The notes beneath the pieces were generated by a model. That model had not been told where the DNA came from. It made no database searches and saw nothing but the letters and a program-made list of their open reading frames with translations. From a virus (lineage: Duplodnaviria > Caudoviricetes), in IMG/VR virus record IMGVR_UViG_3300005663_000053, positions 1 through 55,616 of that record: 55,616 nucleotides of DNA, one strand, 5' to 3'. Both the position numbers and the translations under genes were made by a program. Below, piece by piece: positions 11,016-34,478 of this stretch (its first letter is position 1; each line of letters begins with the position of its first letter).

Positions 11016-11019
11016 GAAT

Positions 11020-13997: not shown

Positions 13998-14008
13998 CCC
14001 TAAATCCC

Positions 14009-14530: not shown

Positions 14531-14531
14531 A

Positions 14532-14879: not shown

Positions 14880-14904
14880 AGTCCTCTAGGAGCGGATCCC
14901 TCTG

Positions 14905-18079: not shown

Positions 18080-18109
18080 GCCGATTCACCAGACTGACGG
18101 AGAATAACC

Positions 18110-18454
18110 ATGCCCAGCCGCTTCCAGCTTCCCTTCCACCCGATTGCCTCGACAGCGCCGAGCTTCGAGGCAACCTTCGATAACACCTCCACCAGCCTTG
18201 CGCTGCAATCGACGAGTCTGCGCGAGTGGGCTGGTCCGACAAACCGCTCCGTCCGCTTGGCGACCCGCACGGCCGATGACTATCTCGTCGCCTTCGGCAC
18301 CAGCGACATCACCCTCGGCGGCTCGTCCGATGCGATGCTTGTGCTGGGCGGGACCGTCGAGGTCTTCCACCCCATCCTTCCCAGCCACACCCATATCGCC
18401 ATGCAGTCGTCGACCGACGTCACAGCCAACGTGACGCTCGGCTACGGCGCGTAG
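18110..18454 (+). CDS. Small beta-rich, Ser/Thr-rich putative virion protein
   Basis: GGAG RBS; composition. Confidence 0.6.
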   Translation: MPSRFQLPFHPIASTAPSFEATFDNTSTSLALQSTSLREWAGPTNRSVRLATRTADDYLVAFGTSDITLGGSSDAMLVLGGTVEVFHPILPSHTHIAMQSSTDVTANVTLGYGA

Positions 18455-18468
18455 GGAGGAGACGCACC

Positions 18469-19050: not shown

Positions 19051-19078
19051 ATCTACCCGATGAGCCGAAATCAGCGCC

Positions 19079-19333
19079 ATGTCGTTCGCTGTATTTCTGG
19101 AGCGCCTTGTCGAACGCTCCGCCCAACTAGACAGAGCCCAGGCGGCGATAGAGGCGCTCGATGTCGGGCTCAAGTTCGAGGCCAGGACACTTGCCAAGAG
19201 GCGCGCCGATCTGGATATGCGCGAGGTCATCATCAAGATGCGTGAGGATTCCTTTTTCGCCCGTGAGGCCAAATTCGCTAACCGTCTCAGGCGGTTCAAC
19301 GAAGTCCTCGATGACTTCAACGATGCTGCATGA
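19079..19333 (+). CDS. Hypothetical protein, partial paralog of 18469..19050
   Basis: Shared C-terminal RE..F.NRL.RFNE.LD. Confidence 0.6.
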   Translation: MSFAVFLERLVERSAQLDRAQAAIEALDVGLKFEARTLAKRRADLDMREVIIKMREDSFFAREAKFANRLRRFNEVLDDFNDAA

Positions 19334-19572
19334 AGCCTTCATCGGCTGACATCGAACAGCGGGTGGCCCAAGCCCAAAAGGCAGCGGAGGCGCTTGATTT
19401 CGGTCACCAGGTTCGGGCCATGCTTCAACCACCCAAACCGATACGGTGGATAATGGATCGCCTTGATCGCCAGATCCCGATCTATCGGGACACACATCAC
19501 ATCGTGAAGGAAGAGGAACGCCAGCGGCGCCGGAAGCGGCGCGAAAAAGCGGGGCGCTACGTCTGGCCATGA
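19330..19572 (+). CDS. Hypothetical protein
   Basis: ATGA-coupled on both sides. Confidence 0.6.
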   Translation: MKPSSADIEQRVAQAQKAAEALDFGHQVRAMLQPPKPIRWIMDRLDRQIPIYRDTHHIVKEEERQRRRKRREKAGRYVWP

Positions 19573-20255
19573 CGCCTGTGATTCTCATGGCTGGTGGCCG
19601 AGGCTTGCGTCTCCATCCGCTCACCGAGAAACACCCCAAGTCCTTGTTGAAGGTCGGTGGCAAGCCGATCCTCGAGCAGATCATCGATGGGTTCGCGCGC
19701 CAAGGCTTCCGCCGCTTCTGGCTATGCGTCAACTACAAGGCGGACCTCATCAAGGATTACTTCGGCGACGGCGGGGTGCGAGGCCTCAAGATCAAGTACA
19801 TCCACGAGACGGAGCCATTGGGCACCGGCGGGGCGCTCAGGCTGCTTCCTGCCTTCGATGTGCCCTTCATTCTCTGCAACGCCGATGTGCTCGCCAAGAT
19901 CGAATACGGCGATCTCATGGAATACCACGCCCGGGCGAACGTCCAGGCGACGGTCTGCGCGGCTTTGTCCCAGCGCCAAGGCCCCTACGGCGTCCTCGAT
20001 GTCGAGCCAGCCCCAGGCTCCACCGCGATACGGTTGATCTCCCTGCGCGAAAAGCCGATCGAGGGCACGCTGGTCAACGCCGGCGTCTATGTGCTAGACC
20101 CGAAGGCGCTGGACCTAGCGCCCGAGGGACACTTCGACATGCCTGAGCTGATTGACCGGCTGGACCGGGTTGCGGCCTACCCGATCGAGGGATATTGGGT
20201 GGATGTCGGCAGCTTTATCGACTTGGCGATGGCGAACACAGAGTGGGCAGCGTGA
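19569..20255 (+). CDS. Sugar-1-phosphate nucleotidyltransferase (PtmE-like, no CBS domains)
   Basis: ILMAGGRGLRLHPLT...PKSLL.VGGKPILE, EPLGTGGAL, EKP, VNAGVY, YWVDVG. Confidence 0.9.
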   Translation: MTPVILMAGGRGLRLHPLTEKHPKSLLKVGGKPILEQIIDGFARQGFRRFWLCVNYKADLIKDYFGDGGVRGLKIKYIHETEPLGTGGALRLLPAFDVPFILCNADVLAKIEYGDLMEYHARANVQATVCAALSQRQGPYGVLDVEPAPGSTAIRLISLREKPIEGTLVNAGVYVLDPKALDLAPEGHFDMPELIDRLDRVAAYPIEGYWVDVGSFIDLAMANTEWAA

Positions 20256-20351
20256 TCATATGAATCGCTTAATCAGCACCTTGACGTTGCCTATCTTGAC
20301 CGCTAGCGTGTTATACGCGCTTTACAAAATGGCTGAAAGCGCAGGCACGTT

Positions 20352-20672
20352 ATGACCGTCTGGATTGTTCGCTTCATGCCTCTCGAAGGAACCGTGCCGA
20401 CCGATGGCCGGTTCCGCACCGAGGAAAGCGCCCGAAAGGTTTGGAATGAGGCTGGGGCGTGGGACACGGGCAAGGGCAAGTTCACCTTCAGGGACGATTT
20501 CGGCGCCGACATCAGGATTGATTTGAAGAAATGCCTTGAGGTTTTCACTGACACCGACAGTTCCGCAGCTTCCCAGTACGCGCTCAACGAGGCTAACCAC
20601 GAGGCGGCGCGCGCTCACAACCTTCCTCCACCCAGCAAGGGTAAGGTCCACCCGGGGTCGACGACGCATTGA
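20352..20672 (+). CDS. Hypothetical protein
   Basis: ORF within the cluster, overlapping the next start. Confidence 0.55.
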   Translation: MTVWIVRFMPLEGTVPTDGRFRTEESARKVWNEAGAWDTGKGKFTFRDDFGADIRIDLKKCLEVFTDTDSSAASQYALNEANHEAARAHNLPPPSKGKVHPGSTTH

Positions 20673-21295
20673 ATGTCCTCGGCTTGATCCCGGCGCGCGG
20701 CGGCTCGCGGCGCGTTAAGGGGAAGAATCTGCGCTTGCTCGGCGGCCACCCGCTGATCGGCTGGACCATCGAAGCGGCCAAGATGACGCATAGCCTCGAC
20801 CGTCTGGTCGTCTCGTCCGAAGACCCGAAGATCCTCCAGGTGGCGCACGAATGCGGCGCCGAGGCGCTGGTGCGGCCAGCGGAGATGGCGACCGACGAGG
20901 CTTCCTCCTATCCGCTGATGCTCCACGCGCTCGACAGCCTCGATGAGCCGTTCGACTATCTGTGCTTGCTTCAGCCGACCTCGCCGTTCCGCCGGCCGAT
21001 CGACATCGACAACTGCATCGGTGCGGCGCGGCAAATGGACTTGGCGGCGGTGATTTCAGTCAGGGAGAAGGAAACCGCAGGCAATGGGGCGATCTATGTG
21101 GGCCGCACGGATTGGCTCCGCGATCGCCTGGCCGCCGGCGATGCCGCACCTTTCGATGGGCCGGCGCCGGAGTTCTATCCCATGGCGCGGGATTGCTCGC
21201 TCGACATCGATACCGAGGAGGATTTCGTCCGGGCCGAGGCGATGGCATCCTTCTTGATGTGGGATGACGCGCTGGGAGAGGACATGAGGAAATGA
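20669..21295 (+). CDS. neuA: CMP-nonulosonate synthetase (acylneuraminate cytidylyltransferase, NeuA/LegF)
   Basis: IPARGGSRRVKGKN, RPAEMATD, LLQPTSPFR, NGAIY, SLDIDTEEDF. Confidence 0.93.
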   Translation: MNVLGLIPARGGSRRVKGKNLRLLGGHPLIGWTIEAAKMTHSLDRLVVSSEDPKILQVAHECGAEALVRPAEMATDEASSYPLMLHALDSLDEPFDYLCLLQPTSPFRRPIDIDNCIGAARQMDLAAVISVREKETAGNGAIYVGRTDWLRDRLAAGDAAPFDGPAPEFYPMARDCSLDIDTEEDFVRAEAMASFLMWDDALGEDMRK

Positions 21296-22260
21296 ATCCC
21301 TTCCAGCCGCTCTACGACGCCTGCAACCAGGGCGACTCGGCGACCAAGTATGCGAACCTGCCGGAGTTTCCCACCCACATAGACGTCGAGCTCACCAGCG
21401 CGTGCAACTTCCGCTGCGTATTCTGTCCAACTGGACTCCACGGGCTCAATCGGGCAGCGGTCAACATGACGTCCGAGACATACGCCAATATCATCGCGCA
21501 GTGCTCCCCGCGCGGCACGCCGTTGCGCTTCATCGGGTGGGGAGAGCCATTGCTGCATCCCAAGGTGGTGGCTTTTGTCCAGATCGCTACCACGGAAGAA
21601 ATCGACACGCATATCAACACCAACGGGTCGAAGCTGAATGCGAGGATGGCCGCTGGACTGGTCCGGGCCGGACTCAAGTCGCTCAAATTCTCATTCCAAG
21701 GCGTTGATCGCGACTCCTTTGCCGAGGCGCGGCAGATCGACTTCTTCGAGGGCATGATCGAAGCCATTAAGACGCTGCGTGCAGCGCGGGGCGATCGGGA
21801 TGACCCCTACATCGCGGCATCGACATCGATCACTGGCGAAAGCCCGGAAATGGTGGAGGTGTTCCGGCGGCGCCTGGAACCGCTGGTAGACCAGCTTTCG
21901 GTGGGACGGACGATCTTTGACTTCCTCGATTCCCGAGCGGTGCGCGCGGCGACGCCGAAGCAGCGCGAGGCATTGGAGAAATTGAAGGCGGCTGATTCAG
22001 CTCCGAAGGTTCACCCCGCGCCCTGCCCGGAAGTTTATGACAAACTGTCCATCCATGCGGACGGCAGCGTGCGCATCTGCTGCAACGATTTCTCAGGCGT
22101 GACCAATTTAGGGAACGTCAACGAACACCGCATCGATGATATTTGGCGGCATGGCGTGATTGAACAGTATCGCAAACGGCTTGCGGCGAAGAAATATGAG
22201 GGCCCGCTTTGCTCCGTATGCTATGATTATCAAGGACTATCGCAGGGCGCGAAACAATGA
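21292..22260 (+). CDS. Radical SAM protein with SPASM/twitch domain
   Basis: CNFRCVFC, GEPLLHP, TNG; C-terminal C...CC...CSVC. Confidence 0.92.
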   Translation: MNPFQPLYDACNQGDSATKYANLPEFPTHIDVELTSACNFRCVFCPTGLHGLNRAAVNMTSETYANIIAQCSPRGTPLRFIGWGEPLLHPKVVAFVQIATTEEIDTHINTNGSKLNARMAAGLVRAGLKSLKFSFQGVDRDSFAEARQIDFFEGMIEAIKTLRAARGDRDDPYIAASTSITGESPEMVEVFRRRLEPLVDQLSVGRTIFDFLDSRAVRAATPKQREALEKLKAADSAPKVHPAPCPEVYDKLSIHADGSVRICCNDFSGVTNLGNVNEHRIDDIWRHGVIEQYRKRLAAKKYEGPLCSVCYDYQGLSQGAKQ

Positions 22261-22703
22261 CGTTCGCAGTCACTCAAACACCGGAGCAACGCTTCTTCGC
22301 GAAAATCCAGCCTGAGCCAAATTCCGGTTGCTGGCTTTGGGACGCAACGATTGCTCGCGGCGGTTATGGGCATTTCTGGGTCGAGGGACGGTTGGTCTAT
22401 GCTCATCGATTCTCCTATGAATTGGTGCATGGGCCGATTCCTCCAGGCGCAGCCTTGGATCATCTCTGTTCGGTGCCCTCATGCGTAAATCCAGATCATT
22501 TGGAAGCGGTGACGCCACAGGAAAACGCCCAGCGGACGGTGGACCGGGGCCGCTGGCATAATCGACACGCCGCCAAGACACATTGCCCTTATGGGCATCC
22601 TTACTCGGGCGATAATCTCTATTTCGAGAGCGGCTATCGCCGTTGCCGTGCATGTTCCCGCCGAAAAGCGGCAGACCAAAGGCGCAAGCGCAGGGCGGCA
22701 TGA
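22257..22703 (+). CDS. HNH homing-type endonuclease
   Basis: CWLW...AHRFSYE...LDHLCSVPSCVNPDHLEAVT..EN; HCPYGH...CRAC. Confidence 0.9.
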   Translation: MTFAVTQTPEQRFFAKIQPEPNSGCWLWDATIARGGYGHFWVEGRLVYAHRFSYELVHGPIPPGAALDHLCSVPSCVNPDHLEAVTPQENAQRTVDRGRWHNRHAAKTHCPYGHPYSGDNLYFESGYRRCRACSRRKAADQRRKRRAA

Positions 22704-24046
22704 CTTTCCCGCCGCTGTGGTCCGCCGAGGTCGAGGCCCGGGTCCGCGCCGAGGCGCGCAATCTCGATAGCCAGGAAAGGCCCCAAGAAGTCCGTTTCTG
22801 TACGCGCTGCGTCGTCTCCAACCAGCGCCCGCGGATACGCTTCGACGACTACGGGGTTTGCTCTGCCTGCCAATACGCGGAGCGGAAGAAGTATGGCCGG
22901 AAGCACACCGATGGAAAACGGTGGGGGATCGACTGGGCGGCACGCGAGGCCGAACTCAAGGCGCTCCTCGACAAGCACCGACGGTCATCCGGATACGATG
23001 TGATCGTGCCCTGCTCGGGCGGCAAGGACTCGAGCATGATCGCGTACCGCTTGAAGCACGAATACGGGATGCACCCGCTGTGCGTTCGCTTCGCGCCGTT
23101 CATGGAAACGGAGATCGGGCGCAAGAATTGGGAGAGCCTTGGCGAGGAGTTTGATCGCCTGGACTTCGGCCCCGCAGGAAACCTGCACCGCAAGCTCGCC
23201 CGTCTCGCCTTCGAGTTCTACGGCGACCCGTTCCAGCCGTTCGTCTACGGCCAGCTCGCCTGGCCGATGTGGGCAGCCGTCGACCGCGACGTCGGCCTAG
23301 TGATGTACGGCGAGAATGGCGAGGCCGAGTATGGTGGTGACCCGGCAGCGAACGACAAGCCATGCTGGGATACCAAGGACTGGGATCGCGTCTACAGCAA
23401 GGGCGCGGGAATCGAGGCGCTATTAGCCGAAGGGGTACATATCGGCGCCATCATGGAAGAGGAGTCGCGCGCGGCCAGCGAGTTCTATCGGATGCCATCG
23501 TTGGACCCGGACGTTGAAGTTGTTCTGCGGCCAGGGACCGTCGCATACACTGACGTAGCCGCTCAATTCCACTGGTTCGGCTACTACCGCCGCTGGCACC
23601 CGCAGGAGAATTACTACTACGCCTCTGAGCACACCGGCTTTGAGGCGAACGAGGAGAGATCGGAGGGCACCTACTCCAAGTACGCCTCGCTCGACGACAA
23701 GCTCGACGGGTTCCATTACTTCATGGCGTTTGTGAAATTCGGGATCGGGCGGGCAACCTCCGACGCCGCCCATGAGGTAAGGGACGGCGACATCACGCGC
23801 GAGGAAGCGATCGCGCTGGTGAAGCGCTACGACGGTGAGTTCCCGGGGCGTCACTTGGACGAGTGCCTAGACTACTTGGGGATGGACCGACAGCAGCTTG
23901 AGCACGTCATTGACCGCTTTCGCGCCCCGCATGTTTGGGATTGTACCGGTATAGTGTCTGGCGCTGATGGCACTACAATTTTTCCTGTGAGCCGCATCTG
24001 GCAGCTCAAGCACGCCGTCTACGACAAGGAGACAGTGGCGGCGTGA
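22700..24046 (+). CDS. N-acetyl sugar amidotransferase (WbuX/WbpG/PtmG family)
   Basis: FCTRCVVSNQRPRI, PP-loop SGGKDSS, YGENGEAEYGG, KFGIGRATSDA. Confidence 0.92.
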   Translation: MTFPPLWSAEVEARVRAEARNLDSQERPQEVRFCTRCVVSNQRPRIRFDDYGVCSACQYAERKKYGRKHTDGKRWGIDWAAREAELKALLDKHRRSSGYDVIVPCSGGKDSSMIAYRLKHEYGMHPLCVRFAPFMETEIGRKNWESLGEEFDRLDFGPAGNLHRKLARLAFEFYGDPFQPFVYGQLAWPMWAAVDRDVGLVMYGENGEAEYGGDPAANDKPCWDTKDWDRVYSKGAGIEALLAEGVHIGAIMEEESRAASEFYRMPSLDPDVEVVLRPGTVAYTDVAAQFHWFGYYRRWHPQENYYYASEHTGFEANEERSEGTYSKYASLDDKLDGFHYFMAFVKFGIGRATSDAAHEVRDGDITREEAIALVKRYDGEFPGRHLDECLDYLGMDRQQLEHVIDRFRAPHVWDCTGIVSGADGTTIFPVSRIWQLKHAVYDKETVAA

Positions 24047-24176
24047 CTGGCAAGATCATACCCAATGAGGTTAGGACGATCGAGGATCTGGTGCGCTGGA
24101 TCATTGATATGGAGCGCGACGTTGTCGCGTTCCAAGAGGCCTACCTCGGGCGCAAGCGGGAACTGCCTTCCAAGAA

Positions 24177-24938
24177 ATGCCCCTCGCCTTCCGGCTGATA
24201 GCGCGCCTCGACATCAAGGCTCCGAACCTGATCAAGACCGTGCGCCTCGAGGGCGTGCGGGTGGTCGGCGATCCGCAGGAATACGCCAAGCGCTATGACC
24301 AAGAAGGCATCGACGAGATCCTCTACATCGATGTCGTCGCCAGCCTCTACCAACGCAACAGTCTCGCCTCGCTTGTCGAGTGGACCAGCGAGCATGCCTT
24401 CGTTCCTGTTACTGTTGGCGGCGGCGTTCGATCGACCATTGATGCTCGCGCCCTTCTTAGGGCAGGGGCGGACAAGCTGGCACTCAATACAGCGGCGGTC
24501 GAGCGGCCCGGACTGATCACGGAAATCGCCGAGAAATTCGGCTCCTCAACGATAGCGGTGCAGATCGATGCGAAACGCAAAGCGTCATCGTGGGAAGCGT
24601 ACTCGGACGGCGGCCGGCAGCCGACCGGAAAAGACGTTGTCGTTTGGGCGCAGGATGCGGTTGAACAAGGCGCTGGCGAGGTTCTACTCACCTCTATCGA
24701 TCATGAAGGAACCGGACAAGGCTTCGATCTCGAGCTGATCCGCGCCGTCGCCGGGGCTGTGCCTGTTCCGGTCGTCGCCTCGGGCGGATTCGGTGAGTCC
24801 AGCCATGCCGTTTCCGCCGCCCTGGCGGGCGCATCAGGCGTCGCCATTGCCGGAGCACTCCACTATCGCCGGGTGCCTTTGAGCGCAATGAGGGAGGCAC
24901 TCAGCGCCGCAGACGTACCCGTGAGGAGAGCGGCATGA
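24177..24938 (+). CDS. hisF: HisF-like cyclase subunit (WbuZ-like, glycan amidation associated)
   Basis: RLIARLDIK, GDP, DVVASLY, PVTVGGGVRS, GADK, GAGEVLLTSIDHEGTGQGFD, SGG. Confidence 0.9.
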   Translation: MPLAFRLIARLDIKAPNLIKTVRLEGVRVVGDPQEYAKRYDQEGIDEILYIDVVASLYQRNSLASLVEWTSEHAFVPVTVGGGVRSTIDARALLRAGADKLALNTAAVERPGLITEIAEKFGSSTIAVQIDAKRKASSWEAYSDGGRQPTGKDVVVWAQDAVEQGAGEVLLTSIDHEGTGQGFDLELIRAVAGAVPVPVVASGGFGESSHAVSAALAGASGVAIAGALHYRRVPLSAMREALSAADVPVRRAA

Positions 24939-25900
24939 CAAAAGCCTTCGTTACCGGCGCCGATGGCTTCATAGGCTCCCATCTCTGCGAGGCGCTGCGC
25001 GATCAAGGCGACGAGGTGACCGGCCTCGCCCTCTACAACAGCTTCGATTCCTTCGGCTGGCTCAATGAGGTGGAAGGAGTCGAGAAGGTCCGCGGCGATG
25101 TGCGCGATGCCGACCAGATGCGATATCTGATCGGCAACAGGTCGACCGACATCGTGTTCCATCTCGCAGCGCTGGTCTCGGTGCCATACAGTTTCGAGGC
25201 ACCGCAGAGCTTCATCGACACGAACGTCACGGGGACACTAAACGTGCTTCTGGCGGCGGGGCACATCGGCGCAAAAGTCATCCACACCTCGACCTCGGAG
25301 GTTTACGGCTCGGTCCCCGACAAGGCGATAAACGAGGACATGCCGCTCGCTCCGCAGTCTCCTTACGCGGCCTCCAAGGTGGCGGCGGATGCCCTTGTGC
25401 GCTCGTTCTACCGGAGCTACGGGCTGCCGGCGGTAATCCTGCGGCCGTTCAACACCTATGGCCCGCGGCAGTCGGAAAGAGCCGTGGTGGCGACCATCAT
25501 CCGCCAAGCACTCGACCCGGAATGCCGACGGATCGAACTCGGCAATCTCCATGCTACCCGCGACCTCACCTACGTTGACGATATGGTGAGGGCGTTCCTT
25601 GCCGTGGCCGGGATCAACGCGTATGGCGTCTACAACGCTGGCGGCGGCGTGATTATTAACGTCCGCGATCTCGGCGAGCTGATAAAGGCATTGACCGGGT
25701 GCGACAAGTCAATCCTCTCTGGGATGGCTGACCGCATACGGCCTGAGGCGAGCGAGGTGGTGGCCCTCAAGGCAGACGCGACACGATTGACCAAGCGCAC
25801 TGGCTGGAGGCCGAAAGTGCCGCCCGGCGAAGGGATGAAGCGCACCATCGACTGGTGGCGCTCTCGCCCGTTCCGCAAGGACCAGGTCTATCTGACGTGA
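24935..25900 (+). CDS. legB: NDP-GlcNAc 4,6-dehydratase, LegB-like
   Basis: VTGADGFIGSHL, YNSFDSFGWL, PYS, HTSTSEVYG, PQSPYAASK, RPFNTYGPRQSERAV. Confidence 0.9.
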   Translation: MTKAFVTGADGFIGSHLCEALRDQGDEVTGLALYNSFDSFGWLNEVEGVEKVRGDVRDADQMRYLIGNRSTDIVFHLAALVSVPYSFEAPQSFIDTNVTGTLNVLLAAGHIGAKVIHTSTSEVYGSVPDKAINEDMPLAPQSPYAASKVAADALVRSFYRSYGLPAVILRPFNTYGPRQSERAVVATIIRQALDPECRRIELGNLHATRDLTYVDDMVRAFLAVAGINAYGVYNAGGGVIINVRDLGELIKALTGCDKSILSGMADRIRPEASEVVALKADATRLTKRTGWRPKVPPGEGMKRTIDWWRSRPFRKDQVYLT

Positions 25901-26826
25901 TCCCGCTCGCCGAGCCCAACTTGGCCGGCAACGAATCCAGATACGTCCGCCAGGCTATTGCCTCGGGCTGGATCTCCGGCGGCGGCCCGTTCGTCGAGCG
26001 CTTCGAGGAGATGGTGGCGAAGGCCTGCGGCCGGCGATGGTGCGTCGCCACCCTGACCGGAACTGACGCGATCCATCTCGCGCAAACCGCATGCGGTTTG
26101 CGGCGGGATATGCGCGTCGATATGCCCTCGATGGCCTACATCGGGGCGGCGAACGCCGTGAAGGCCGCGGGCGGCACAATCCACTTTCGCGACATCACCG
26201 ATGGCTGGACCTATGATCGGACGGTGCTGGGCGGGGTGGTCGATGCAGCCCCCGCCGTCGGGATCAGGCAAGAGGGCTTGGTTATCTGCCTCTCGTTCAA
26301 CGGCAACAAGACGATCACCACGGGCCAGGGCGGCGCCGTCCTCGGCAACGAGCTGGAGTTTGGCAGTCTTGTGCGCCATCTGGGGACAATGGCCAAGACG
26401 GGGCCATACGAGTACGACGCCGCTGGCTTCAACTACCCCATGACGAACCTCACTGCAGCCATGGGGTGCGCGCAGATGGAGCGGCTCAAGCCAGCCCTCT
26501 CTCGGAAGCGGGATATCTGGCGGCGCTACCGCGAGGCACTGCGACCAGCCTTTCCCGGCGTCCGATCACAGTCGTGCTGGATGGCGACCCTGCGGACGGA
26601 GAAGCGCGGCGCGATGCTCGCGCATCTTCGCAAGTTGGGTATCGACGCGCGGCCTTTCTGGACGCCGCTGCATATGCTGGCACCATATCGGAACTGCCAC
26701 CGCGATCCTCTGCCCATCACCGAGGCGATCTGGGACAAACTGGTCTGCCTGCCATGTTCGACCGGACTCACGGAAGGGGATCAGGACAAGGTGATAGCTG
26801 CATGCGCCGCATTCTTGTCGTCGTAA
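25897..26826 (+). CDS. legC: PLP-dependent sugar aminotransferase, LegC-like (DegT/DnrJ family)
   Basis: SFNGNKTITTGQGGA (PLP Lys), GFNYPMTNLTAAMGCAQME, RPFWTPLH, LPCS. Confidence 0.88.
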   Translation: MIPLAEPNLAGNESRYVRQAIASGWISGGGPFVERFEEMVAKACGRRWCVATLTGTDAIHLAQTACGLRRDMRVDMPSMAYIGAANAVKAAGGTIHFRDITDGWTYDRTVLGGVVDAAPAVGIRQEGLVICLSFNGNKTITTGQGGAVLGNELEFGSLVRHLGTMAKTGPYEYDAAGFNYPMTNLTAAMGCAQMERLKPALSRKRDIWRRYREALRPAFPGVRSQSCWMATLRTEKRGAMLAHLRKLGIDARPFWTPLHMLAPYRNCHRDPLPITEAIWDKLVCLPCSTGLTEGDQDKVIAACAAFLSS

Positions 26827-27791: not shown

Positions 27792-28585
27792 TTGCCGAGG
27801 CCGGCGTCAACCACAATGGCGACGTCGACATCGCGCACAAGCTGGTCGAGGCGGCTGCAAGCGCCGGCGCCGACGCGGTCAAGTTCCAGACCTTCGATGC
27901 GGAGAGATTGGATCCGCCGGGCGCGCGCCGGGAGATGCTGGCCAAGCTCCAGCTCTCGCACGAGGCGCATTTCGCCTTGAAGAAGCAGGCCATGGATCTC
28001 GGCATCGAGTTCATGTCCACGCCGTTCGACCTCGACTCCCTGCGTTTCCTGGTCGAAGATGTCATGGTCGGGACGCTTAAGATCGGCTCCGGCCAGCTCG
28101 ACAACGCCCCGCTGCTTGAGGCCGCACGAATGTCCCCATGCCACCTGATCGTCTCGACTGGCATGGCCACGATGGAGGACGTTGGGCGGGCGCGCGGGGA
28201 GCTCCGGCGCGGCATCATGCTGCACTGCACGAGCGCCTACCCGGCGCCGCCGGCTGACATCAACCTGCGGGCGATGGTAGCTATGCGCGAGAAGCTGGGC
28301 TGCCCCGTCGGGCTTTCCGACCACACCGACAGCACGGCCATCCCGATTGCGGCGGTGGCGCTCGGCGCCGAGGTCATCGAGAAGCACCTGACGCTTGATC
28401 CCTGGATGCGGGGCCCGGACCATGCGGCCTCGCTCGATCCCCATCGCTTTTCTGCGATGGTCACTGGCATCCGCAGTGTCGAACTAGCCCTGGGCGACGG
28501 GGTGAAGCGGCCCCAGGCGAGCGAGGCCGGGGCCATCGAGATCGCCGCCGAGCGGCGCGCTTGGAGGGAAAAGAATGCAAGTTGA
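27779..28585 (+). CDS. neuB: Nonulosonic acid synthase (NeuB/LegI), lacking the C-terminal SAF domain
   Basis: IAEAGVNHNGD, GADAVKFQT, FMSTPFD, STGMA, LHCTSAYP, GLSDHT, IEKHLTLD, GPDHAASL. Confidence 0.95.
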   Translation: MVFVIAEAGVNHNGDVDIAHKLVEAAASAGADAVKFQTFDAERLDPPGARREMLAKLQLSHEAHFALKKQAMDLGIEFMSTPFDLDSLRFLVEDVMVGTLKIGSGQLDNAPLLEAARMSPCHLIVSTGMATMEDVGRARGELRRGIMLHCTSAYPAPPADINLRAMVAMREKLGCPVGLSDHTDSTAIPIAAVALGAEVIEKHLTLDPWMRGPDHAASLDPHRFSAMVTGIRSVELALGDGVKRPQASEAGAIEIAAERRAWREKNAS

Positions 28586-28799
28586 CAGTGCAGACGCCAG
28601 ACCAGATCCACCGGAGGAGTGCGGCAGTTGCGGCCAGGAGGGTGTCGAACTCCATCGGACCTCTTCTTATGGTCCCGGCCATCAGGTCACATGGCATTGT
28701 GATTTCTGTTTTAACTTCATGGATCCCGGCAGCGCCCTCAGCCACAACCTCGCCAAAATGGGGCACATGCTGCTCAAGGCAATTCGCGATAGAGGGTAA
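28575..28799 (+). CDS. Small putative Zn-ribbon protein
   Basis: CGSC and CDFC pairs; coupled to both neighbours. Confidence 0.55.
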   Translation: MQVDSADARPDPPEECGSCGQEGVELHRTSSYGPGHQVTWHCDFCFNFMDPGSALSHNLAKMGHMLLKAIRDRG

Positions 28800-29344
28800 T
28801 GTCTCGCATCGTGATTCTCGGCACCGGCGGCCATGCGCGAACGCTACAGGCGCTTATGGGCTATCCGGCCGACTCCTGTATTTTGACTGATGATGACGAC
28901 GAAGTCCGACCTGATGATTCCGTTCTTATTGGTGTCGGCGACGTGGTGAAGCGCCGGTCGCTTTTTAAGAAATTCCGTTCGCAAGTGCAGGAGATGCGCG
29001 CATCTCGAACCTTCGTTCATACGTCGGTGAAAGTCGGGCGCGGCATCCAGATGATCATGGGCGCGATGATCATGCCAAATTGCCGAATCGGCGACAATGT
29101 GCTGATCAACACCGGTGCCCAGATCGACCACGACTGCAATATTTCGTCACATTGCGTCATCAGCCCCGGTGCGATCCTATGCGGCAACGTGACGCTCGGT
29201 GAGGCATGCTTTATCGGTGCCGGCGCGATCATCGTGCAAGAGGTGACCCTTGAACCCGAGACCTTCATTCCGGCGGGAACGCTCGTGGTAGGACCAGATG
29301 ATCTCCGCCATCCATTGCGGGATGTCGTCTTACCGTCGCAGTAG
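28799..29344 (+). CDS. Hexapeptide-repeat sugar acetyltransferase (NeuD/LegH/PglD family)
   Basis: ILGTGGHA, IGVGD, INTGAQIDHDC, left-handed beta-helix repeats. Confidence 0.9.
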   Translation: MSRIVILGTGGHARTLQALMGYPADSCILTDDDDEVRPDDSVLIGVGDVVKRRSLFKKFRSQVQEMRASRTFVHTSVKVGRGIQMIMGAMIMPNCRIGDNVLINTGAQIDHDCNISSHCVISPGAILCGNVTLGEACFIGAGAIIVQEVTLEPETFIPAGTLVVGPDDLRHPLRDVVLPSQ

Positions 29345-29348
29345 ACCA

Positions 29349-30851
29349 ATGGACATCTGTCTCGTCATCCCGCCATCGACCTTTTTGATGGACGAGCGGG
29401 TATTCCCGAGCCTGGGCGTGTTGAAGATCGCCGCTGTCCTCGAGGCTGCGGGCAAGGATGTCGGCGTTCTGGATCTATCGGGGGTCGAGAACTATCTGGA
29501 CGCGCTCGATGTGTTCCTCGCCGGGTTCACTGGCCGCCACATCGGCATCACTGCGACGACGCCGCAGATGCCGGCCGCGCACCTGATCGCCAAGCGTATC
29601 CGGGAAGTTGCCACCGGTAAGCGCATTATCCTCGGCGGGCCCCACGTCACGCTGGTCCATGCGGCAGCGCGAAAGGAAAAGGAACGCTCGAAATACAGCC
29701 GGGGCAGAAGGGCTCTGGACCAACTCTGCGATCTCTATGAAGTGCTCTCGGTCGGTGATGGCGAGGCGGCGATCTTCGAGGCGATAGGGCCTTGCCGACC
29801 ACCCAAGATTATCGACGCCGACGATCGCAAAGGTCCGCTGTTCCAGACGCGGGACCAGTACGCAGCATCGCCGTTCCCCGCGCGCCACCTGATCGACCTG
29901 GACAGCTACTCCTATGAGATCGAGGGGCATCGGGCGACCAGCCTGATCTCCCAGTTGGGCTGCCCCTTCAACTGCGGCTTCTGCGGCGGCCGGAACTCCT
30001 CGATGCTCAGGGTGATCCGCACCCGACCCGTGGCCACGGTGATCGACGAGCTCACCGAAATCCATGAGGCCTATGGCTACACCGGCTTCATGTTCTACGA
30101 CGACGAGTTGAACGTGAACGAGGCCAGCTTCCTCGAGTTGCTGGATCGGCTCACAGCCCTGCAAGCGCGCCTCGGGACCGAGTTCCGCCTACGAGGCTTT
30201 ATCAAGGCGGAGCTATTCAACGAGGCCCAGGCACGCGCGATGTATGCGGCCGGGTTCCGGTGGCTGCTCTGCGGCTTCGAGGGCGCCGACGACCGGATCC
30301 TGACCAACATCAACAAGAGGGCGACGATCGAGGACAACACGGCTGTGATCAAGGTCGCGCACAAGCACGGCCTGAAGGTCAAGGCGTTGATGTCGATCGG
30401 GCACCCAGGCGAGTCCCGCGCCTCCGTGCTGGCGGTCCGCGACTGGCTGATCGCACAAGAGGCGGACGATTTCGACGTCACCATCATCACGCCCTATCCG
30501 GGCTCGCCTTACCATGACGAGGCGGTGGAGCAAGCCGACGGGTCGTTCACATACGTCCAGCCCGTGACCGGCGATCGCCTCCATATGCGGGAGGTCGACT
30601 ACAATGAGCACGCCGATTACTACAAGGGGATGCCCGGTGAGTACGTTTCGCTGGTCCATACCGACGGCCTGAGCGAAGCGGAGCTGGTGGCGTTGCGCGA
30701 CCAGGTGGAGGCCGAGGTGCGTGAAGCACTGGGGATTCCATTCAGCGCCGTCAACAGGGCCACCAAGTACGAGCACTCGATGGGACAGGGCTTGTCAGAT
30801 CATCTGTTGCGGTCTACTCCAGAGGAATGGGCGCGATCTCAAACCGCCTGA
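29349..30851 (+). CDS. Cobalamin-binding radical SAM protein
   Basis: N-terminal PSLG...LGGPHVT...GDGE B12 domain; GCPFNCGFC; FYDDE; GHPGES; PYPGS. Confidence 0.92.
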   Translation: MDICLVIPPSTFLMDERVFPSLGVLKIAAVLEAAGKDVGVLDLSGVENYLDALDVFLAGFTGRHIGITATTPQMPAAHLIAKRIREVATGKRIILGGPHVTLVHAAARKEKERSKYSRGRRALDQLCDLYEVLSVGDGEAAIFEAIGPCRPPKIIDADDRKGPLFQTRDQYAASPFPARHLIDLDSYSYEIEGHRATSLISQLGCPFNCGFCGGRNSSMLRVIRTRPVATVIDELTEIHEAYGYTGFMFYDDELNVNEASFLELLDRLTALQARLGTEFRLRGFIKAELFNEAQARAMYAAGFRWLLCGFEGADDRILTNINKRATIEDNTAVIKVAHKHGLKVKALMSIGHPGESRASVLAVRDWLIAQEADDFDVTIITPYPGSPYHDEAVEQADGSFTYVQPVTGDRLHMREVDYNEHADYYKGMPGEYVSLVHTDGLSEAELVALRDQVEAEVREALGIPFSAVNRATKYEHSMGQGLSDHLLRSTPEEWARSQTA

Positions 30852-31732
30852 TCTCAGGCACCTGGGCCGCATGGTACGCGGCGACCGAGCCGGTGAGACT
30901 TCGATGGGCCCGCCAGAAGCATGGGGGTGACTATGATGGCCTCAACGATCCGCGGTTTCATGCGCCGCAGAAAAACGCAGACGGTTCATTCACGATCTAC
31001 GGAAGTTCGGACCCGCCGATCAATCCACTGGTCACGGTCTACATCCCGACGCACAACCGGGTCGATCTGTTGATGGAGCGCGCCCTGCCGAGCGTGCTGG
31101 CCCAGACCTATCGCAATATTGAGATTATCGTCGCGGCGCACGGGTGTACTGACGGGACGGCAAGTCGCGTTTGCGGACTCGGCAGACCTAAAACATGTGT
31201 GCTCGGCGTACCGCGCCGGCGCACCTACCCGCCCACGGTAGAGAACCACTGGTTCGCAAAAGAGGTAGCCCCGGCAAATGCCGCTTTGCGGGCGGCGGGC
31301 GGCGCATGGATCGCCCGCCTTGATGACGACGACATCTGGACCCCGGATCACGTCGAGAAGCTGCTGCGCTTCGCCCAGAAAGGCGACTTCGAGTTCGTCT
31401 CAGCGGCCTATGAGCGGGAGCGCGATGGTGTTCGCGAGGTCGTGCCCCATTTTGGATCGGACATAATCGAAGCCCCGTACATCGGCGGTCACCAGACCTG
31501 GCTATATCGCTCGTACCTTCGGTTCATGCGGTACAATCAGGAATGCTGGCGGAAGCGATGGAACCGGGTCAACGACACCGATCTCGCTGATCGATTCTGG
31601 AAAGCGGGCGTGCGCATTGGCTGGCTCGATGAAGTCCTGGCCTACGTTATTCCACGGCCAGGCGAAACGACGGTAGGTTTGGAGGCCTACCGCCGTAACG
31701 CGGTGAACATTGAGCGCGAACTAGCGTTCTGA
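30827..31732 (+). CDS. Glycosyltransferase family 2
   Basis: VTVYIPTHNR, SVLAQTY.NIEIIV, GCTDGT, IARLDDDD. Confidence 0.9.
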   Translation: MGAISNRLISGTWAAWYAATEPVRLRWARQKHGGDYDGLNDPRFHAPQKNADGSFTIYGSSDPPINPLVTVYIPTHNRVDLLMERALPSVLAQTYRNIEIIVAAHGCTDGTASRVCGLGRPKTCVLGVPRRRTYPPTVENHWFAKEVAPANAALRAAGGAWIARLDDDDIWTPDHVEKLLRFAQKGDFEFVSAAYERERDGVREVVPHFGSDIIEAPYIGGHQTWLYRSYLRFMRYNQECWRKRWNRVNDTDLADRFWKAGVRIGWLDEVLAYVIPRPGETTVGLEAYRRNAVNIERELAF

Positions 31733-31740
31733 TCTGAAAG

Positions 31741-32001
31741 TCAGGCGTGGGCCGACATCCCGCCGTCACCTTTGCGGGCTCGCCTCATCTTCCCCAGCGC
31801 AACGCCTTTGGGTGGCCGACCGAGTCGCTTGGTGCGGGTCGGCGCCTTGGCTCGCTTGGCCGTCTTGCGCGCTACGCGTTTCGTTGGATGAGCGGCAGCA
31901 AACTTTTTGCCCGACATGATGTCGTCGATCAAACTGGAAAGGAAAGCATCGATGCTGGCGCGACCTTTGAGCCAGATCGAATCTGGAACGATGAGTTTCA
32001 T
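31741..32001 (-). CDS. Small basic hypothetical protein
   Basis: Reverse-strand ORF filling the gap; GGAG RBS. Confidence 0.4.
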   Translation of the reverse strand: MKLIVPDSIWLKGRASIDAFLSSLIDDIMSGKKFAAAHPTKRVARKTAKRAKAPTRTKRLGRPPKGVALGKMRRARKGDGGMSAHA

Positions 32002-32075
32002 GTGGGATCTCCCTAGAGTTAAAGTGATCGCACCCTAACCAGCCTGGGCCGCCGGCACAACGGCCCATCTCAGCA

Positions 32076-32100
32076 GCCGTCCCGCTTGGGGCGGTTTTTC
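32076..32100 (+). terminator. Intrinsic terminator-like hairpin
   Basis: GCCGTCCC-GCTT-GGGGCGGT followed by a T run. Confidence 0.6.
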
Positions 32101-32133
32101 TTATCCAGCAACAGCACCAGCAAGGAGAACGTC

Positions 32134-32649
32134 ATGACCTTCAATCCTGTTCAGCAAACGTCCATCCATGGGCGCCGGCTCGGTCTTGGCAGCACGGGTG
32201 CCATCCTGCAAGGGAGCAGCGACGGCACAAAATACGCGGCCCTCATCAGAAGCACGGCCGATATGCTTCAAAACTCGACCGCTCTGTTGGCTTCACAGTG
32301 GGGCCTCAACGCACAGAGCGTGGTGCCAAGTTCCGTAGGCTCGACGCTCACGAACTACGGCCTTGAGAGCCTGTCGTCGGCCTCGGCGACATTGGTCACC
32401 GGCCATCAGCTCGGAACTCCGGTCGTTGGCGTCATCAAGACGATCCACCTCGATTGCAGTGGTTCGGAGATCATCTTCGGCGGCACTTCGACCGCCATGG
32501 TGTTCCGGCCCGCGATCGCGGGTGCCGGCTCGAGCTTGTCCATTGTTCAGCTCCCCTTGGCGGGCACCGTGATCACCCTCATGGGATTCGCCTCCAGCGA
32601 ATGGACGTTGATCTCGGTTGGTTCGTCAGCAGCAGTCGTCATCGGGTAG
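32134..32649 (+). CDS. Ser/Thr-rich putative virion surface protein; shares a domain with 52948..53649
   Basis: AAGGAG RBS; SSVGSTLTN.G...FGGTSTA...GAGS...LAG..ITL.G....W. Confidence 0.7.
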   Translation: MTFNPVQQTSIHGRRLGLGSTGAILQGSSDGTKYAALIRSTADMLQNSTALLASQWGLNAQSVVPSSVGSTLTNYGLESLSSASATLVTGHQLGTPVVGVIKTIHLDCSGSEIIFGGTSTAMVFRPAIAGAGSSLSIVQLPLAGTVITLMGFASSEWTLISVGSSAAVVIG

Positions 32650-32655
32650 GTGCCA

Positions 32656-33519
32656 ATGGCAGTAAAAAAGATCGCCATCATCGGGACGAGTCCGTCCTGC
32701 AAAAAGGCACCTTATGGTGACCGTTCGTGGGAAATCTGGAGCTTTAACCGGACATGCTTCGATCTCAAGCGGTGGGATCGACTCTTCGAGATACACCAAA
32801 AATGGGATTATGAACCCGACCCCAAGGCGTATCTCGACCGTCTCAAGAAGGTGAAGCCGCCCAAGAAAGTCATGTCGATCATCCCACTTGGCGGACCAGC
32901 GAACATCGTGATCGACCGCGAGGCGCTGTTCAAGAAATACGGCGCAATCTGGATTTCCTCGTCCATCACCTATGCAATCGCTTGTGCCCTAGAAGAGAAG
33001 CCCACCGACATCGGCCTATGGGGCATCGACATGGAGTCCCGCGAGGAATACGTGGTGCAGTTCGCGGGGTGCCGGCATTTCATCGACATGGCGAAGGTCT
33101 TGGGCATCAAAATCCATCTGCCCCATGATTGCCTTCTTCGCCGGGATCCCCACCCCTATGCGGACCGCTTCGAGACGACCCTCGCGCTGACCCTCGAAAG
33201 CAAGGCGAAATATATTGAGAAGCTGATCGATAGGGTCGAATGCCAGCTCAGTGCAGCCGAGGCGGGAATGAACCAGCGGTTGGGCCGCATCCGGGAAATG
33301 TATCTGCACGCTGATCTCCCGTATGAGGACGTCGATAAGCAAGAAGCCAAGGCCGCCGAGGACAAGTGGTACGTCGAAAAGCTGACGGCCTCCCTCAACC
33401 GCCTTCGGGGCGAACTCATAGCCACCCAGCACTACAAGCGCCTCTTCGTCTGGAACGTGCTTCCGCCGGAATTTGGCGAGGAGACTACGACGGACATCGA
33501 AGATTGCGGTCCAATCTGA
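32656..33519 (+). CDS. Putative nonulosonate transferase (Maf/GT42-like Rossmann motifs) with C-terminal coiled coil, copy 1
   Basis: KIAIIGTSPS, WSFN, SSITYAIACA, IGLWGIDM. Confidence 0.55.
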   Translation: MAVKKIAIIGTSPSCKKAPYGDRSWEIWSFNRTCFDLKRWDRLFEIHQKWDYEPDPKAYLDRLKKVKPPKKVMSIIPLGGPANIVIDREALFKKYGAIWISSSITYAIACALEEKPTDIGLWGIDMESREEYVVQFAGCRHFIDMAKVLGIKIHLPHDCLLRRDPHPYADRFETTLALTLESKAKYIEKLIDRVECQLSAAEAGMNQRLGRIREMYLHADLPYEDVDKQEAKAAEDKWYVEKLTASLNRLRGELIATQHYKRLFVWNVLPPEFGEETTTDIEDCGPI

Positions 33520-34478
33520 TGAGCCAAAGAAAGACGAAAGCGGCGAAGAAAGCGGCCCCGAAAGGGGCCAAAATCTTGAAGTCCCCCGAACGCAAGATCG
33601 CCATCTTCGGCACCACGCCCTCGCGCGGGCTGGGGCCATATGCCGATGGTTCGGGCTGGGAGCGATGGACGATCGGCCCCGGCGGCAAGGATGCCCACAA
33701 CTGGGAGCGGCTGTTCGAGGTACACGGACTCTGGCCTGCGGACTTCAAGGGTTATCTGAACGATCTCTCCCTGATCAAGCCGCCCCAACAGGTCGTCACG
33801 CTTCCGCAGCCCGACCGCCCAGCCGAGACTTGGGCCGAGGCCATCGCGAACTGGAAGGCCACCCATGGGCTGCCCGACGACGTGCTCAAAGGCGACTGGT
33901 CGGGGCAAGTGACTTACCCGCGCGAGACCATCCTCGAAAAATTCGGCCGGCGGATGTGGTTCTCGTCGTCGATTTCCTGGTGCATCGCGCTCGCCATCCA
34001 CGAGAAGCCCACCGACATCGGCCTGTGGGGCATCGACCTGGAAGCGGGTGAGGAATACATCAGCCAATTCGTCGGCTGCGCCCACTTCCTCGATCTCGCC
34101 CGCCTTTGCGGGATCAACATTCACCTACCCAAGGACTGCGGCCTCCTCCGCGACCCGGCGCCCTACCCGGATCGCTGGGAAACCCATCTCGCGCTCACAC
34201 TGGAAAAGAAAGCCAAGTGGATCGACGAGATGATTCAGAAGCAGCAGCCGGAGTACGACGCCTTGAGCGCCGAAGTACACCGCCAGGAAGGCAAGCTCTT
34301 GACCATGCGCGCCTATGAAGCCGAGGCCAAGGACATCGAGGAGGGCGAGCGCGTGCTCATCGCGAACAACGCCCGGCTCGGCCAAATCGCGGCAAACATC
34401 AACCAGCTCAAGGGCGAACTCAGCGCTACCCAGTTTTATCGCCGGATGTACGTCTGGGGCATGGTGGAGCCGTATTAG
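33519..34478 (+). CDS. Putative nonulosonate transferase, copy 2 (paralog)
   Basis: KIAIFGTTPS, SSISWCIALA, EKPTDIGLWGIDL, YPDRWETHLALTLE. Confidence 0.55.
   Translation: MSQRKTKAAKKAAPKGAKILKSPERKIAIFGTTPSRGLGPYADGSGWERWTIGPGGKDAHNWERLFEVHGLWPADFKGYLNDLSLIKPPQQVVTLPQPDRPAETWAEAIANWKATHGLPDDVLKGDWSGQVTYPRETILEKFGRRMWFSSSISWCIALAIHEKPTDIGLWGIDLEAGEEYISQFVGCAHFLDLARLCGINIHLPKDCGLLRDPAPYPDRWETHLALTLEKKAKWIDEMIQKQQPEYDALSAEVHRQEGKLLTMRAYEAEAKDIEEGERVLIANNARLGQIAANINQLKGELSATQFYRRMYVWGMVEPY

Follow-up and report, generated by a model that had tools for sequence, protein, structure and literature searches.

The window analysed here is the whole of IMG/VR virus record IMGVR_UViG_3300005663_000053 (55,616 nucleotides; Duplodnaviria, Caudoviricetes), and its subject is a 14.9-kb block of plus-strand genes, 19569-34478, that lies between the genes for the small and large terminase subunits (terS and terL). 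Most of the block (19569-31732) encodes, by family assignment, a divergent legionaminic-acid-type pathway to a nonulosonate activated with cytidine monophosphate (CMP-NulO). Its last part, which adjoins terL, encodes a small Ser/Thr-rich spike-like protein of a family that we call A6 and two paralogous proteins with the predicted fold of Maf and GT42 sialyltransferases. We propose that the phage glycosylates its own spike/fibre domain in the cytoplasm with a nonulosonate that it makes itself, and we give this reading a probability of roughly 0.5. It is put forward because a CMP-NulO cassette, a soluble sialyltransferase/Maf-fold enzyme and a Ser/Thr-rich spike-like protein share one slot adjoining terL, and none of them has a membrane part.

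The spike-like protein and the transferase paralogues beside terL

The genes on which the proposal turns are these:

32134-32649, plus strand: small Ser/Thr-rich spike/fibre-like protein of family A6, 171 amino acids (aa), candidate acceptor (AlphaFold2 (AF2) fold and profile family)
32650-33519, plus strand: transferase paralogue 1, with a predicted Maf/GT42 fold (AF2 model) and a C-terminal helical hairpin
33519-34478, plus strand: transferase paralogue 2, 43% identical to paralogue 1 (family profile E 2.5e-64)
34478-36067, plus strand: terL (PHROG 979 E 7e-21, PHROG 2 E 6e-20)
52948-53649, plus strand: fibre-like virion protein with a C-terminal A6 domain at about residues 128-233 (A6 profile E 2.2e-19)

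The two open reading frames (ORFs) before terL match the same places in related loci and are therefore taken to be paralogues. The ATG of paralogue 2 (33519) overlaps the stop codon of paralogue 1, and its own stop overlaps the start of terL. An AF2 model of paralogue 1 made from a 70-sequence alignment (pLDDT 80.4) shows residues 2-165 as an alpha/beta domain, which a long helical hairpin follows. In an exhaustive structural search of 48,161 chains, the top match of this model is the central domain of the flagellin NulO-transferase Maf (5mu5_A; Z 11.9, root-mean-square deviation 2.9, 152 residues), followed by CstI (2p56_A, Z 10.0), an MptE-like kinase (8sd5_A, Z 9.2) and SteA (9hmy_A, Z 8.5); a Z of at least 8 is reached in only 4 of the chains. 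Animal sialyltransferases match at Z about 7, the top Foldseek match is CstII (1ro8_B, E 4.6e-5), and the BFVD matches include viral models annotated as DUF115/MptE-like and GT29. Identity in the structural alignments is 12-19%. Thus the two candidate transferases of the original prediction, which had been made from the sequence before any database search, have a sialyltransferase-like predicted fold, with the Maf-type catalytic domain recognizable in the model. Residues E47, H49, D127, E133 and Q137 are invariant in the family alignment.

Like Maf enzymes that act on flagellin, these transferases are soluble, linked to CMP-NulO genes and adjacent to a Ser/Thr-rich structural gene, and residues 2-165 of the model superpose on Maf (5mu5) and, among the GT42 enzymes CstI and CstII (2p56, 1ro7/1ro8), on CstI. 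Unlike Maf (632 aa), they are 289-320 aa long, lack the Maf flanking domains and have a C-terminal helical hairpin instead. They also differ from both Maf and GT42 in that there is no sequence-level match and that the family occurs in phages. Membership of Maf/DUF115 (PF01973, MptE-like) was tested by sequence and failed, and neither the transferases nor the small protein upstream belong to a PHROG or NCBIfam family.

The transferase family is large. Its profile finds 4786 representatives of 50%-identity clusters, 1357 of them at E 1e-30 or better and all unnamed, and 1012 proteins reach E 1e-3 or better among 8000 candidates scored. A single scan of 185,579 species genomes gave six matches, all on short contigs of metagenome-assembled genomes with inconsistent labels. 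The family is nearly confined to phage-sized contigs, and in the ESM Atlas its closest clusters consist wholly (100%) of viral members; of the clusters that contain PF01973, the closest has a score of just 0.83, no more than a lead. Microcystis phage Mvi-Yong1342-1 (PP496355.1, 34781-35584) is the only cultured phage with a member, which there stands immediately before terS-terL. That homologue is annotated as a 'type 11 methyltransferase', which is probably wrong. Judged by profile searches, the transferases thus belong to a large family without prior annotation.

The relatives examined comprise 69 IMG/VR loci found with TerL as the query (33-58% identity) and one more, L002, found with NeuB, which as a single-protein query of IMG/VR retrieved this locus only; 42 window proteins were compared with the 70 loci by tblastn. 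The two transferase ORFs both match, at the same places, in 13 of the 70. NeuB is found in nine loci and the transferase family in all nine of them, the WbuX/WbuZ pair is present in eight related loci, and every transferase locus for which 5 kb or more of upstream sequence is available (10/10) has NeuB or WbuX/WbuZ. The link to NeuB, together with the Ser/Thr-rich neighbour, suggests that the paralogues may transfer the sugar to Ser/Thr residues of a protein.

That neighbour accompanies the transferase closely. Of 79 sources searched locally with profiles, 23 have the transferase; in four of them the gene starts at a contig edge, which leaves 19 testable loci. In 16 of these the gene immediately before the transferase is A6, and the A6 profile has no match in the 56 sources without transferase. 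The A6 protein of the window and the proteins of about 155 aa in the relatives form one family (hhalign probability 98.2%, E 4.6e-14). It has at least 395 homologues, all unnamed, and one member compared with cultured phages by tblastn gave no match. Ser and Thr make up 26% of the A6 protein, which is joint highest with 52948-53649 among 42 proteins scored, and across 70 sequences 31 of its 171 positions are at least 70% Ser/Thr. The window has two transferase genes and one free A6 gene, L002 has one and two, and L032 two and one; the two small spike genes of L002 have a methyltransferase gene between them.

The AF2 model of the A6 protein (pLDDT 72.8) has a low-confidence N-terminus and a confident beta-domain. 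This domain matches a baseplate chain of Klebsiella phage KP1 (9f4a_Le, Z 11.4), the N-terminal module of the CBA120 tailspike TSP4 (7rfv_A, Z 10.7), an Acinetobacter phage tailspike (Z 10.0) and the capsid spike of Pseudomonas phage Pa223 (9ny6_C, Z 8.3). Only 8 of 48,161 chains reach a Z of at least 5, and the weaker rows are galectin-type lectins at Z about 3. The C-terminus of the fibre-like protein 52948-53649 is 53% identical to the small A6 protein, and its residues 7-100 match annotated tail-fibre/head-decoration proteins in 53 phage records. The possibility that the gene of about 155 aa is the true terS was considered and rejected, given its beta-sandwich fold and the recognizable terS that L036 and L002 have elsewhere.

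The nonulosonate biosynthetic cluster

Genes of the cluster, all on the plus strand, were assigned with Pfam, NCBIfam and PHROG profiles and by comparison with solved structures:

19569-20255, plus strand: sugar-1-phosphate nucleotidyltransferase (PF00483 E 1.5e-29)
20352-20672, plus strand: ORF of 106 aa, no assignment
20669-21295, plus strand: CMP-nonulosonate synthetase of NeuA/LegF/PseF type (PF02348 E 2.9e-21, 76.7 against a cut-off of 22.6)
21292-22260, plus strand: radical-SAM/SPASM enzyme, predicted to act in tailoring (PF04055 E 6e-20, PF13186 E 1.3e-10)
22257-22703, plus strand: HNH homing-type endonuclease (PF13392 E 3e-14; PHROG 826 E 1.5e-53)
22700-24046, plus strand: WbuX-type N-acetyl sugar amidotransferase (TIGR03573 288.7 bits, cut-off 203.2)
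24177-24938, plus strand: WbuZ/HisF-like partner of WbuX (TIGR03572 249 bits, cut-off 299.7; PF00977 E 3e-58)
24935-25900, plus strand: LegB-type NAD-dependent 4,6-dehydratase (best family TIGR04180, 329 bits, cut-off 475)
25855-26826, plus strand: LegC-type aminotransferase dependent on pyridoxal phosphate (PLP) (best family TIGR04181, 230 bits in two stretches, cut-off 420)
26802-27791, plus strand: hydrolysing 2-epimerase of LegG/NeuC type (TIGR03568 253 bits, cut-off 235.9)
27779-28585, plus strand: NeuB/LegI-type nonulosonate synthase, 268 aa (PF03102 E 1.1e-71)
28799-29344, plus strand: NeuD/LegH-type hexapeptide N-acetyltransferase (TIGR03570 127.5 bits, cut-off 160.8; Hexapep E 1.6e-12)
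29298-30851, plus strand: B12-binding radical-SAM enzyme (PF02310 E 2.9e-8, PF04055 E 4e-18), found also in L036
30827-31732, plus strand: family-2 glycosyltransferase (GT2; PF00535 E 8.6e-18)

The seven enzymes that the original prediction had named between terS and terL are all present in this orientation, with support from Pfam, NCBIfam and solved structures, and so are the co-oriented GT2 (30827-31732) and the two motifs it had reported, YNSFDSFGWL in LegB and SFNGNK in LegC. To its list we add the WbuX/WbuZ pair, the two radical-SAM enzymes and the HNH endonuclease. A legionaminic-type CMP-nonulosonate route, as it had claimed, is supported by the family assignments, because the top families of the dehydratase and aminotransferase are LegB and LegC, the acetyltransferase is of NeuD type and the epimerase is nearest to an N,N'-diacetylbacillosamine 2-epimerase. 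Searching each ORF with profile models, a check that it had advised, did recover the families, with six of eight NCBIfam matches below their cut-offs. Missing catalytic residues were to count against it; the motifs are kept in the alignments of the dehydratase (YxxxK and the Rossmann motif of short-chain dehydrogenases/reductases), the CMP-synthetase and NeuB, and LegC retains its Lys motif (SFNGNK) and a DAA motif in a PLP domain that is shortened.

The nucleotidyltransferase, whose best NCBIfam families are the GlmU-type N-domain and mannose-1-phosphate guanylyltransferase (all under the cut-off), is proposed to make the precursor, a nucleoside-diphosphate N-acetylhexosamine (NDP-HexNAc). 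The CMP-synthetase reaches no NCBIfam equivalog (TIGR03584, PseF, 105 bits against a cut-off of 205.7), and its best solved relatives are CMP-Neu5Ac synthetases (6ifd_A, E 3e-21), with which only the N-terminal half aligns. For the epimerase, the best solved match is the hydrolysing GDP/UDP-N,N'-diacetylbacillosamine 2-epimerase 5xvs_A (E 6.2e-51), as against 1e-27 for the Neu5Ac-type GNE. NeuB lacks the C-terminal SAF domain, and no SAF-like frame lies downstream. Its score with TIGR03569 (310 bits; PseI, 193 bits) falls below the cut-off of 399.65 because of this absence, and its best solved match, 6ncs_A (E 2.4e-46), is itself a chain of 290 aa. The gap between NeuB and NeuD is filled by a 74-aa ORF (28575-28799, plus strand) that has two CxxC pairs, looks zinc-ribbon-like and matches no family.

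The HNH gene interrupts the cluster between the radical-SAM/SPASM gene and WbuX, and neighbouring stop and start codons overlap (the WbuX ATG at 22700 overlaps the HNH stop). WbuX and WbuZ would most likely produce an acetamidino derivative of the sugar. As in the cellular WbuX/WbuY/WbuZ system the genes are adjacent, WbuX scores above its cut-off and WbuZ has its own family as the top match; unlike that system, the window does not have all three components, with no WbuY/HisH gene among the ORFs scanned. The B12-binding radical-SAM enzyme is probably a methylase or catalyses another tailoring step. Homologues in L002 are 51% identical for the radical-SAM/SPASM enzyme and 46% for the GT2, which adjoins NeuB there.

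Campylobacter jejuni uses PtmE, LegB, LegC, LegH, LegG, LegI and LegF on its route to CMP-legionaminic acid and also makes acetamidino derivatives. The window resembles it in having the same enzyme families in one co-oriented cluster, plus a WbuX-type amidotransferase. Unlike the C. jejuni set, that of the window is phage-borne, has six of eight scores under the cut-offs, a NeuB without SAF domain and a shortened LegC, lacks the HisH-type partner and the hexosamine-phosphate genes, and includes two extra radical-SAM enzymes.

None of the proteins of 19569-34478 has a transmembrane-like segment (the sole segment above threshold, 1.73 in the beta-rich g32086, is no membrane helix), which agrees with the earlier remark that membrane O-antigen genes are missing. 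A gap of 400 nucleotides (31733-32133) separates the GT2 from the small spike gene and holds a terminator-like hairpin of nine pairs (32075-32096, plus strand), the strongest of the region; over 13500-33400, counts of promoters and terminators are at chance (5 against 4.1 and 14 against 14.1). A possible 86-aa ORF on the minus strand (31741-32001), with a ribosome-binding-like motif GGGAGA upstream and no family match, also lies in the gap.

Related loci and the integrity of the genome

The original prediction had recommended a search for the same cluster in viral databases, and the cassette does recur upstream of terL in related IMG/VR loci. Against 50,697 phage records, megablast with the 14.9-kb cluster gave no match. 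The portal is found by tblastn in 65 of the 70 relatives and the capsid protein in 53. Cassettes are of different types, with the transferase constant across them. The window and L002 have a Leg type with NeuC and a hexapeptide acetyltransferase, L004 has a Pse type (PseB-like, DegT, cytidylyltransferase, GNAT and NeuB), and L019, L027, L029 and L032, also of Pse type, have GNAT, NeuB, WbuX and WbuZ. The SAF domain is missing from NeuB in L002 and L004 as well and is kept in L019, L027, L029, L032 and L048. L002 keeps the cassette and its gene order at 30-61% protein identity. This closest relative, a 17.8-kb IMG/VR fragment, has no tblastn match to the dehydratase, nucleotidyltransferase or WbuZ, and completeness of the cassette differs among phages. 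Its LegC is full-length (400 aa), so the LegC deletion appears specific to the window phage; shortened DegT-type ORFs, as called, are seen in L004 (1602-2186, 194 aa) and L036 (1527-2180, 217 aa).

The gene immediately 5' of terL is constant in cassette loci despite a shifting terS: the order is terS, cassette, transferase, terL in L002 and cassette, terS, small protein, transferase, terL in L036. A terS homologue lies 150-1000 bases before terL in L022, L053 and L066. Upstream of terL, relatives without a cassette encode beta-helix proteins of 515-519 aa (L035, L038), a GDSL protein (L016) or GH5 and GDPD proteins (L050), and because these genes are of tailspike type we regard the region before terL as a host-recognition slot. 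The cassette of L029, a relative of Pse type, includes a further fibre-type gene at 5125-5703, located between NeuB and the spike-transferase pair; it matches the Pfam family 'Podophage GP4 fiber I protein gp80' (E 1.8e-13) as well as PHROG 240 'head protein'.

Other features of the window are as follows:

7146-7742, plus strand: second HNH-like ORF, early region
11554-12696, plus strand: DUF5131 protein, early region (Pfam E 8e-97, PHROG 2045 E 3e-117)
13925-14530, plus strand: terS, Sf6-type (Pfam PF20901 E 3.1e-32, 111 bits against a cut-off of 27; PHROG 1482 E 2e-35)
15239-17521, plus strand: tail-fibre-like protein, 760 aa (C-terminus matches PHROG 11355 tail fiber protein, E 1.8e-11)
36815-38503: portal, T7-type (PF12236 E 1.4e-55)
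39910-40794, plus strand: radical-SAM-like ORF, 294 aa, in the head module between scaffold-like and major capsid genes (Pfam Radical_SAM E 4e-6, under the cut-off)

The last of these has no tblastn match in the 70 related loci. terS is separated from the cluster by 5 kb that hold the 760-aa fibre-like gene (19% Ser+Thr, hydrophobic N-terminus) and six small ORFs. TerL shares about 40% identity with its counterparts in Acidovorax phage AP1 and Bordetella phage BPP-1. The record also contains a major head protein, tubular tail proteins A and B (PHROG 394, 376), an endolysin, an integrase (1870-2937, minus strand), DNA methyltransferases, repressor-like genes and an Erf recombinase, and by this gene content the phage is temperate. 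The genome has no tRNA gene. With its T7-type portal, tubular tail proteins A and B, related TerL and integrase, the phage is assigned by its genes as a BPP-1-like temperate podophage, and the record as a complete circular genome of about 55.5 kb. GC content is even along the genome (0.59-0.66), with the sugar region no outlier, and called genes, including those of the cluster, share a GC content at third codon positions (GC3) of 0.72-0.86. The earlier estimate that about a quarter of the genome is spent on the system is close to the 27% (14.9 of 55.5 kb) found here.

IMG/VR lists the record as a whole virus of 55,616 bases with direct terminal repeats, and 77 bases at each end are identical. 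Five of the nine listed sequencing runs (two studies) hold at least 97% of sampled words of 18000-27900; all five are flagged as possible sources and so are not fully independent. Contigs from four runs of the two studies cover 1-20000 and cross the left border of the cluster (19569) without differences, and this border is therefore taken as real; the right border is supported because synteny is conserved in the relatives. The first run gives a single contig of 55,362 bases with no differences over 1-20000, the second a contig of 55,569 bases that wraps around, and in the third 35,539 letters link position 20000 to position 1, closing a circle of 55,539 (55,616 - 77). A chimeric join, which the original prediction had named as grounds for giving it up, is not seen, and contigs of several runs close the same circle. 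Two small organism-labelled runs hold the phage as a free circle of about 55 kb, not as an integrated prophage. In two runs contigs break or diverge at 10510-10656 and 11258-11309, with loose ends, skips of 93-98 bases and 10 substitutions at 11166-11227, which points to strain variants around the Erf region.

Proposed virion glycosylation, its alternatives and its meaning

In the mechanism that we propose, the sugar would be made and activated late in infection and attached before or during particle assembly. From the NDP-HexNAc supplied by the nucleotidyltransferase, the LegB dehydratase, LegC aminotransferase and NeuD/LegH acetyltransferase would form an NDP-2,4-diacetamido-2,4,6-trideoxyhexose. 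The LegG-type hydrolysing 2-epimerase would free a sugar of 6-deoxy-mannose type, the SAF-less NeuB/LegI would join it to phosphoenolpyruvate, and the NeuA/LegF-type enzyme would convert the product to the CMP-sugar. One acetamido group would most likely be changed to acetamidino by WbuX/WbuZ, and the two radical-SAM enzymes may modify the sugar further. The Maf/GT42-fold paralogues could then take the CMP-sugar as donor, with the A6 protein (32134-32649) and the A6 domain at the C-terminus of 52948-53649 as putative acceptors, and the GT2 may attach an additional sugar. As an outcome, host-recognition appendages would bear an acidic nonulosonate coat. The original prediction had the sugar attached to virion proteins; this idea is strengthened by the pairing with the spike gene, the recurrence of the A6 domain and the tailspike slot, and stays at the level of a proposal.

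Beyond the window phage, we put forward, tentatively and at slightly under even odds, a large and hitherto unannotated phage-specific two-gene module: a mini Maf/GT42-fold NulO transferase and a trimeric Ser/Thr-rich spike adjoining terL, which would coat particles with sugar from a phage cassette (Leg or Pse) or from the pool of the host. Were the module real, viral self-glycosylation would gain a new class and the protein sialyl-type transferases a new family, a prospect that seems to us nearly evenly balanced.

Phage-encoded glycosyltransferases reportedly glycosylate virions in actinobacteriophages, as Freeman and colleagues are said to have described in 2023. Those phages are like ours in having transferases near the structural genes and a proposed cytoplasmic decoration of capsid or tail. 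Unlike them, with their host sugar nucleotides and GT-A/GT2 enzymes, the window phage has its own pathway of about 12 kb to an acidic sugar of nine carbons, and its Maf/GT42-fold transferase comes with a spike-like partner dedicated to it. A genome announcement cites capsid glycosylation by two phage glycosyltransferases (PMC11256854), phage-encoded tailoring of host capsule nonulosonates is described for Acinetobacter (PMC12053666, PMC6586298), and flagellin glycosylation for Maf and FlmG (PMC9298399, PMC7591256). Full-text searches, with subscription journals and bioRxiv supplements outside their reach, found no phage NulO pathway coupled to virion glycosylation. The pathway, the fold and the concept of virion glycosylation are already known, and the transferase family and its conserved spike partner are new.

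Several observations weigh against virion glycosylation by this route. The earlier description of the pathway as full was too strong: about 36-40 residues of the LegC PLP domain are missing relative to solved relatives (residues 101-121 align where perosamine synthetase 3bn1 has 103-159, about 20 residues against 56), no HisH-type glutaminase (WbuY) for WbuX/WbuZ is found in the ORFs scanned (17522-38503), and genes for the hexosamine-1-phosphate precursor steps are absent from the cluster. Curated NCBIfam cut-offs are reached in only two of eight matches (NeuC and WbuX), and the other six are divergent. The hairpin and the 400-nucleotide gap set the biosynthetic part apart from the block of spike, transferase and terL genes. 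At E up to 10, Pfam on 12 members of the transferase family gave nothing relevant (three unrelated chance matches), and the family profile has nothing significant among PDB sequences, the best relevant entry being the sialyltransferase 9c08_A at E = 1. Likeness of the modelled fold cannot tell a protein acceptor from a glycolipid; the GT42 enzymes CstI and CstII sialylate lipooligosaccharide, and the NCBIfam families nearest to the GT2 (TuaG, EpsE, WcaA, PglI) act on lipid-linked acceptors. A high Ser/Thr content is a frequent trait of fibre proteins in general. The transferase occurs without A6 in L005, L075 and the Microcystis phage, the last of which has neither A6 nor NulO synthesis genes in the 15 kb viewed.

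Some of these points lend weight to a different use of the CMP-sugar, namely its placement by the Maf/GT42-like enzymes and the GT2 on host lipooligosaccharide, capsule precursor, flagellin, pilin or S-layer protein, in the lysogen or in infected cells, for superinfection exclusion, receptor masking or lysogenic conversion. We judge such remodelling of the host surface unlikely; it keeps weight because the folds include glycolipid sialyltransferases, the GT2 families use lipid-linked (undecaprenyl) acceptors and the phage, with integrase, repressor-like genes and Erf, is temperate. Nonulosonates are classic cell-surface sugars, the nearest folds act on flagellin or lipooligosaccharide, the hairpin divides the biosynthetic genes from the late block, and the lack of a dehydratase or nucleotidyltransferase match in L002 implies hosts with related pathways of their own. 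However, the cluster encodes no flippase, polymerase, ligase, GtrAB or membrane protein and does not lie beside the integrase or attachment site, the usual place of conversion genes. The transferase is fixed at terL with a spike-like gene (16/19), in the tailspike region of relatives, its family is almost missing from bacterial genomes, and in the two organism-labelled runs the phage is a free 55-kb circle. Were the host surface the target after all, the cluster would serve lysogenic conversion, as a large and unusual cassette that does not depend on the membrane.

It is also conceivable, and in our view distinctly improbable, that the virion is glycosylated elsewhere, for instance on the 760-aa fibre or on the capsid protein, with A6 acting as an adaptor, receptor-binding spike or NulO lectin. 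The A6 fold is that of an attachment/adaptor module of branched tailspikes (CBA120 TSP4), its weaker structural matches are lectins, copy numbers of A6 and transferase disagree in the window, L002 and L032, and the 760-aa fibre is itself 19% Ser/Thr. Against this, adjacency of A6 and transferase is near-obligate, more so than for other fibre genes; the 760-aa fibre is matched in none of the 70 loci, and the capsid protein occurs in its 53 loci regardless of cassette. That the cluster is an inert, decaying island acquired horizontally, or an assembly chimera, is very unlikely indeed. The LegC deletion, the SAF-less NeuB, the HNH insertion, the mostly sub-cut-off NCBIfam scores and a CheckV completeness estimate of 64% would fit such an origin. 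Yet every frame is open and has the same GC3 bias as genes elsewhere in the genome, the SAF-less NeuB recurs in L002 and L004 and has a short solved relative, L002 retains the cassette at its level of divergence, and the 77-bp terminal repeat and the closed circle (20000 + 35539 = 55539), with no differences at the left border, largely refute the chimera. Glycosylation of DNA was considered and set aside: the window ORFs scanned include no machinery for 5-hydroxymethyl-pyrimidine, and the available text of a preprint on virus-encoded DNA glycosyltransferases contains none of the terms nonulosonic, pseudaminic, legionaminic, sialic, NeuB or CMP.

If virion glycosylation by the phage is true, the SAF-less NeuB and the shortened aminotransferases would probe what nonulosonate pathways can dispense with, and the family of 4786 representatives would be a new compact class of NulO transferases with the protein acceptor encoded next to it, of use for glyco-engineering and for working out acceptor rules, which are still unclear for Maf. 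Phages would then, like many animal viruses, use sialic-acid-like glycans on their particles, but self-made ones, and the coat may serve as a shield against proteases, in mimicry of host surfaces, against clumping on debris or in tuning adsorption.

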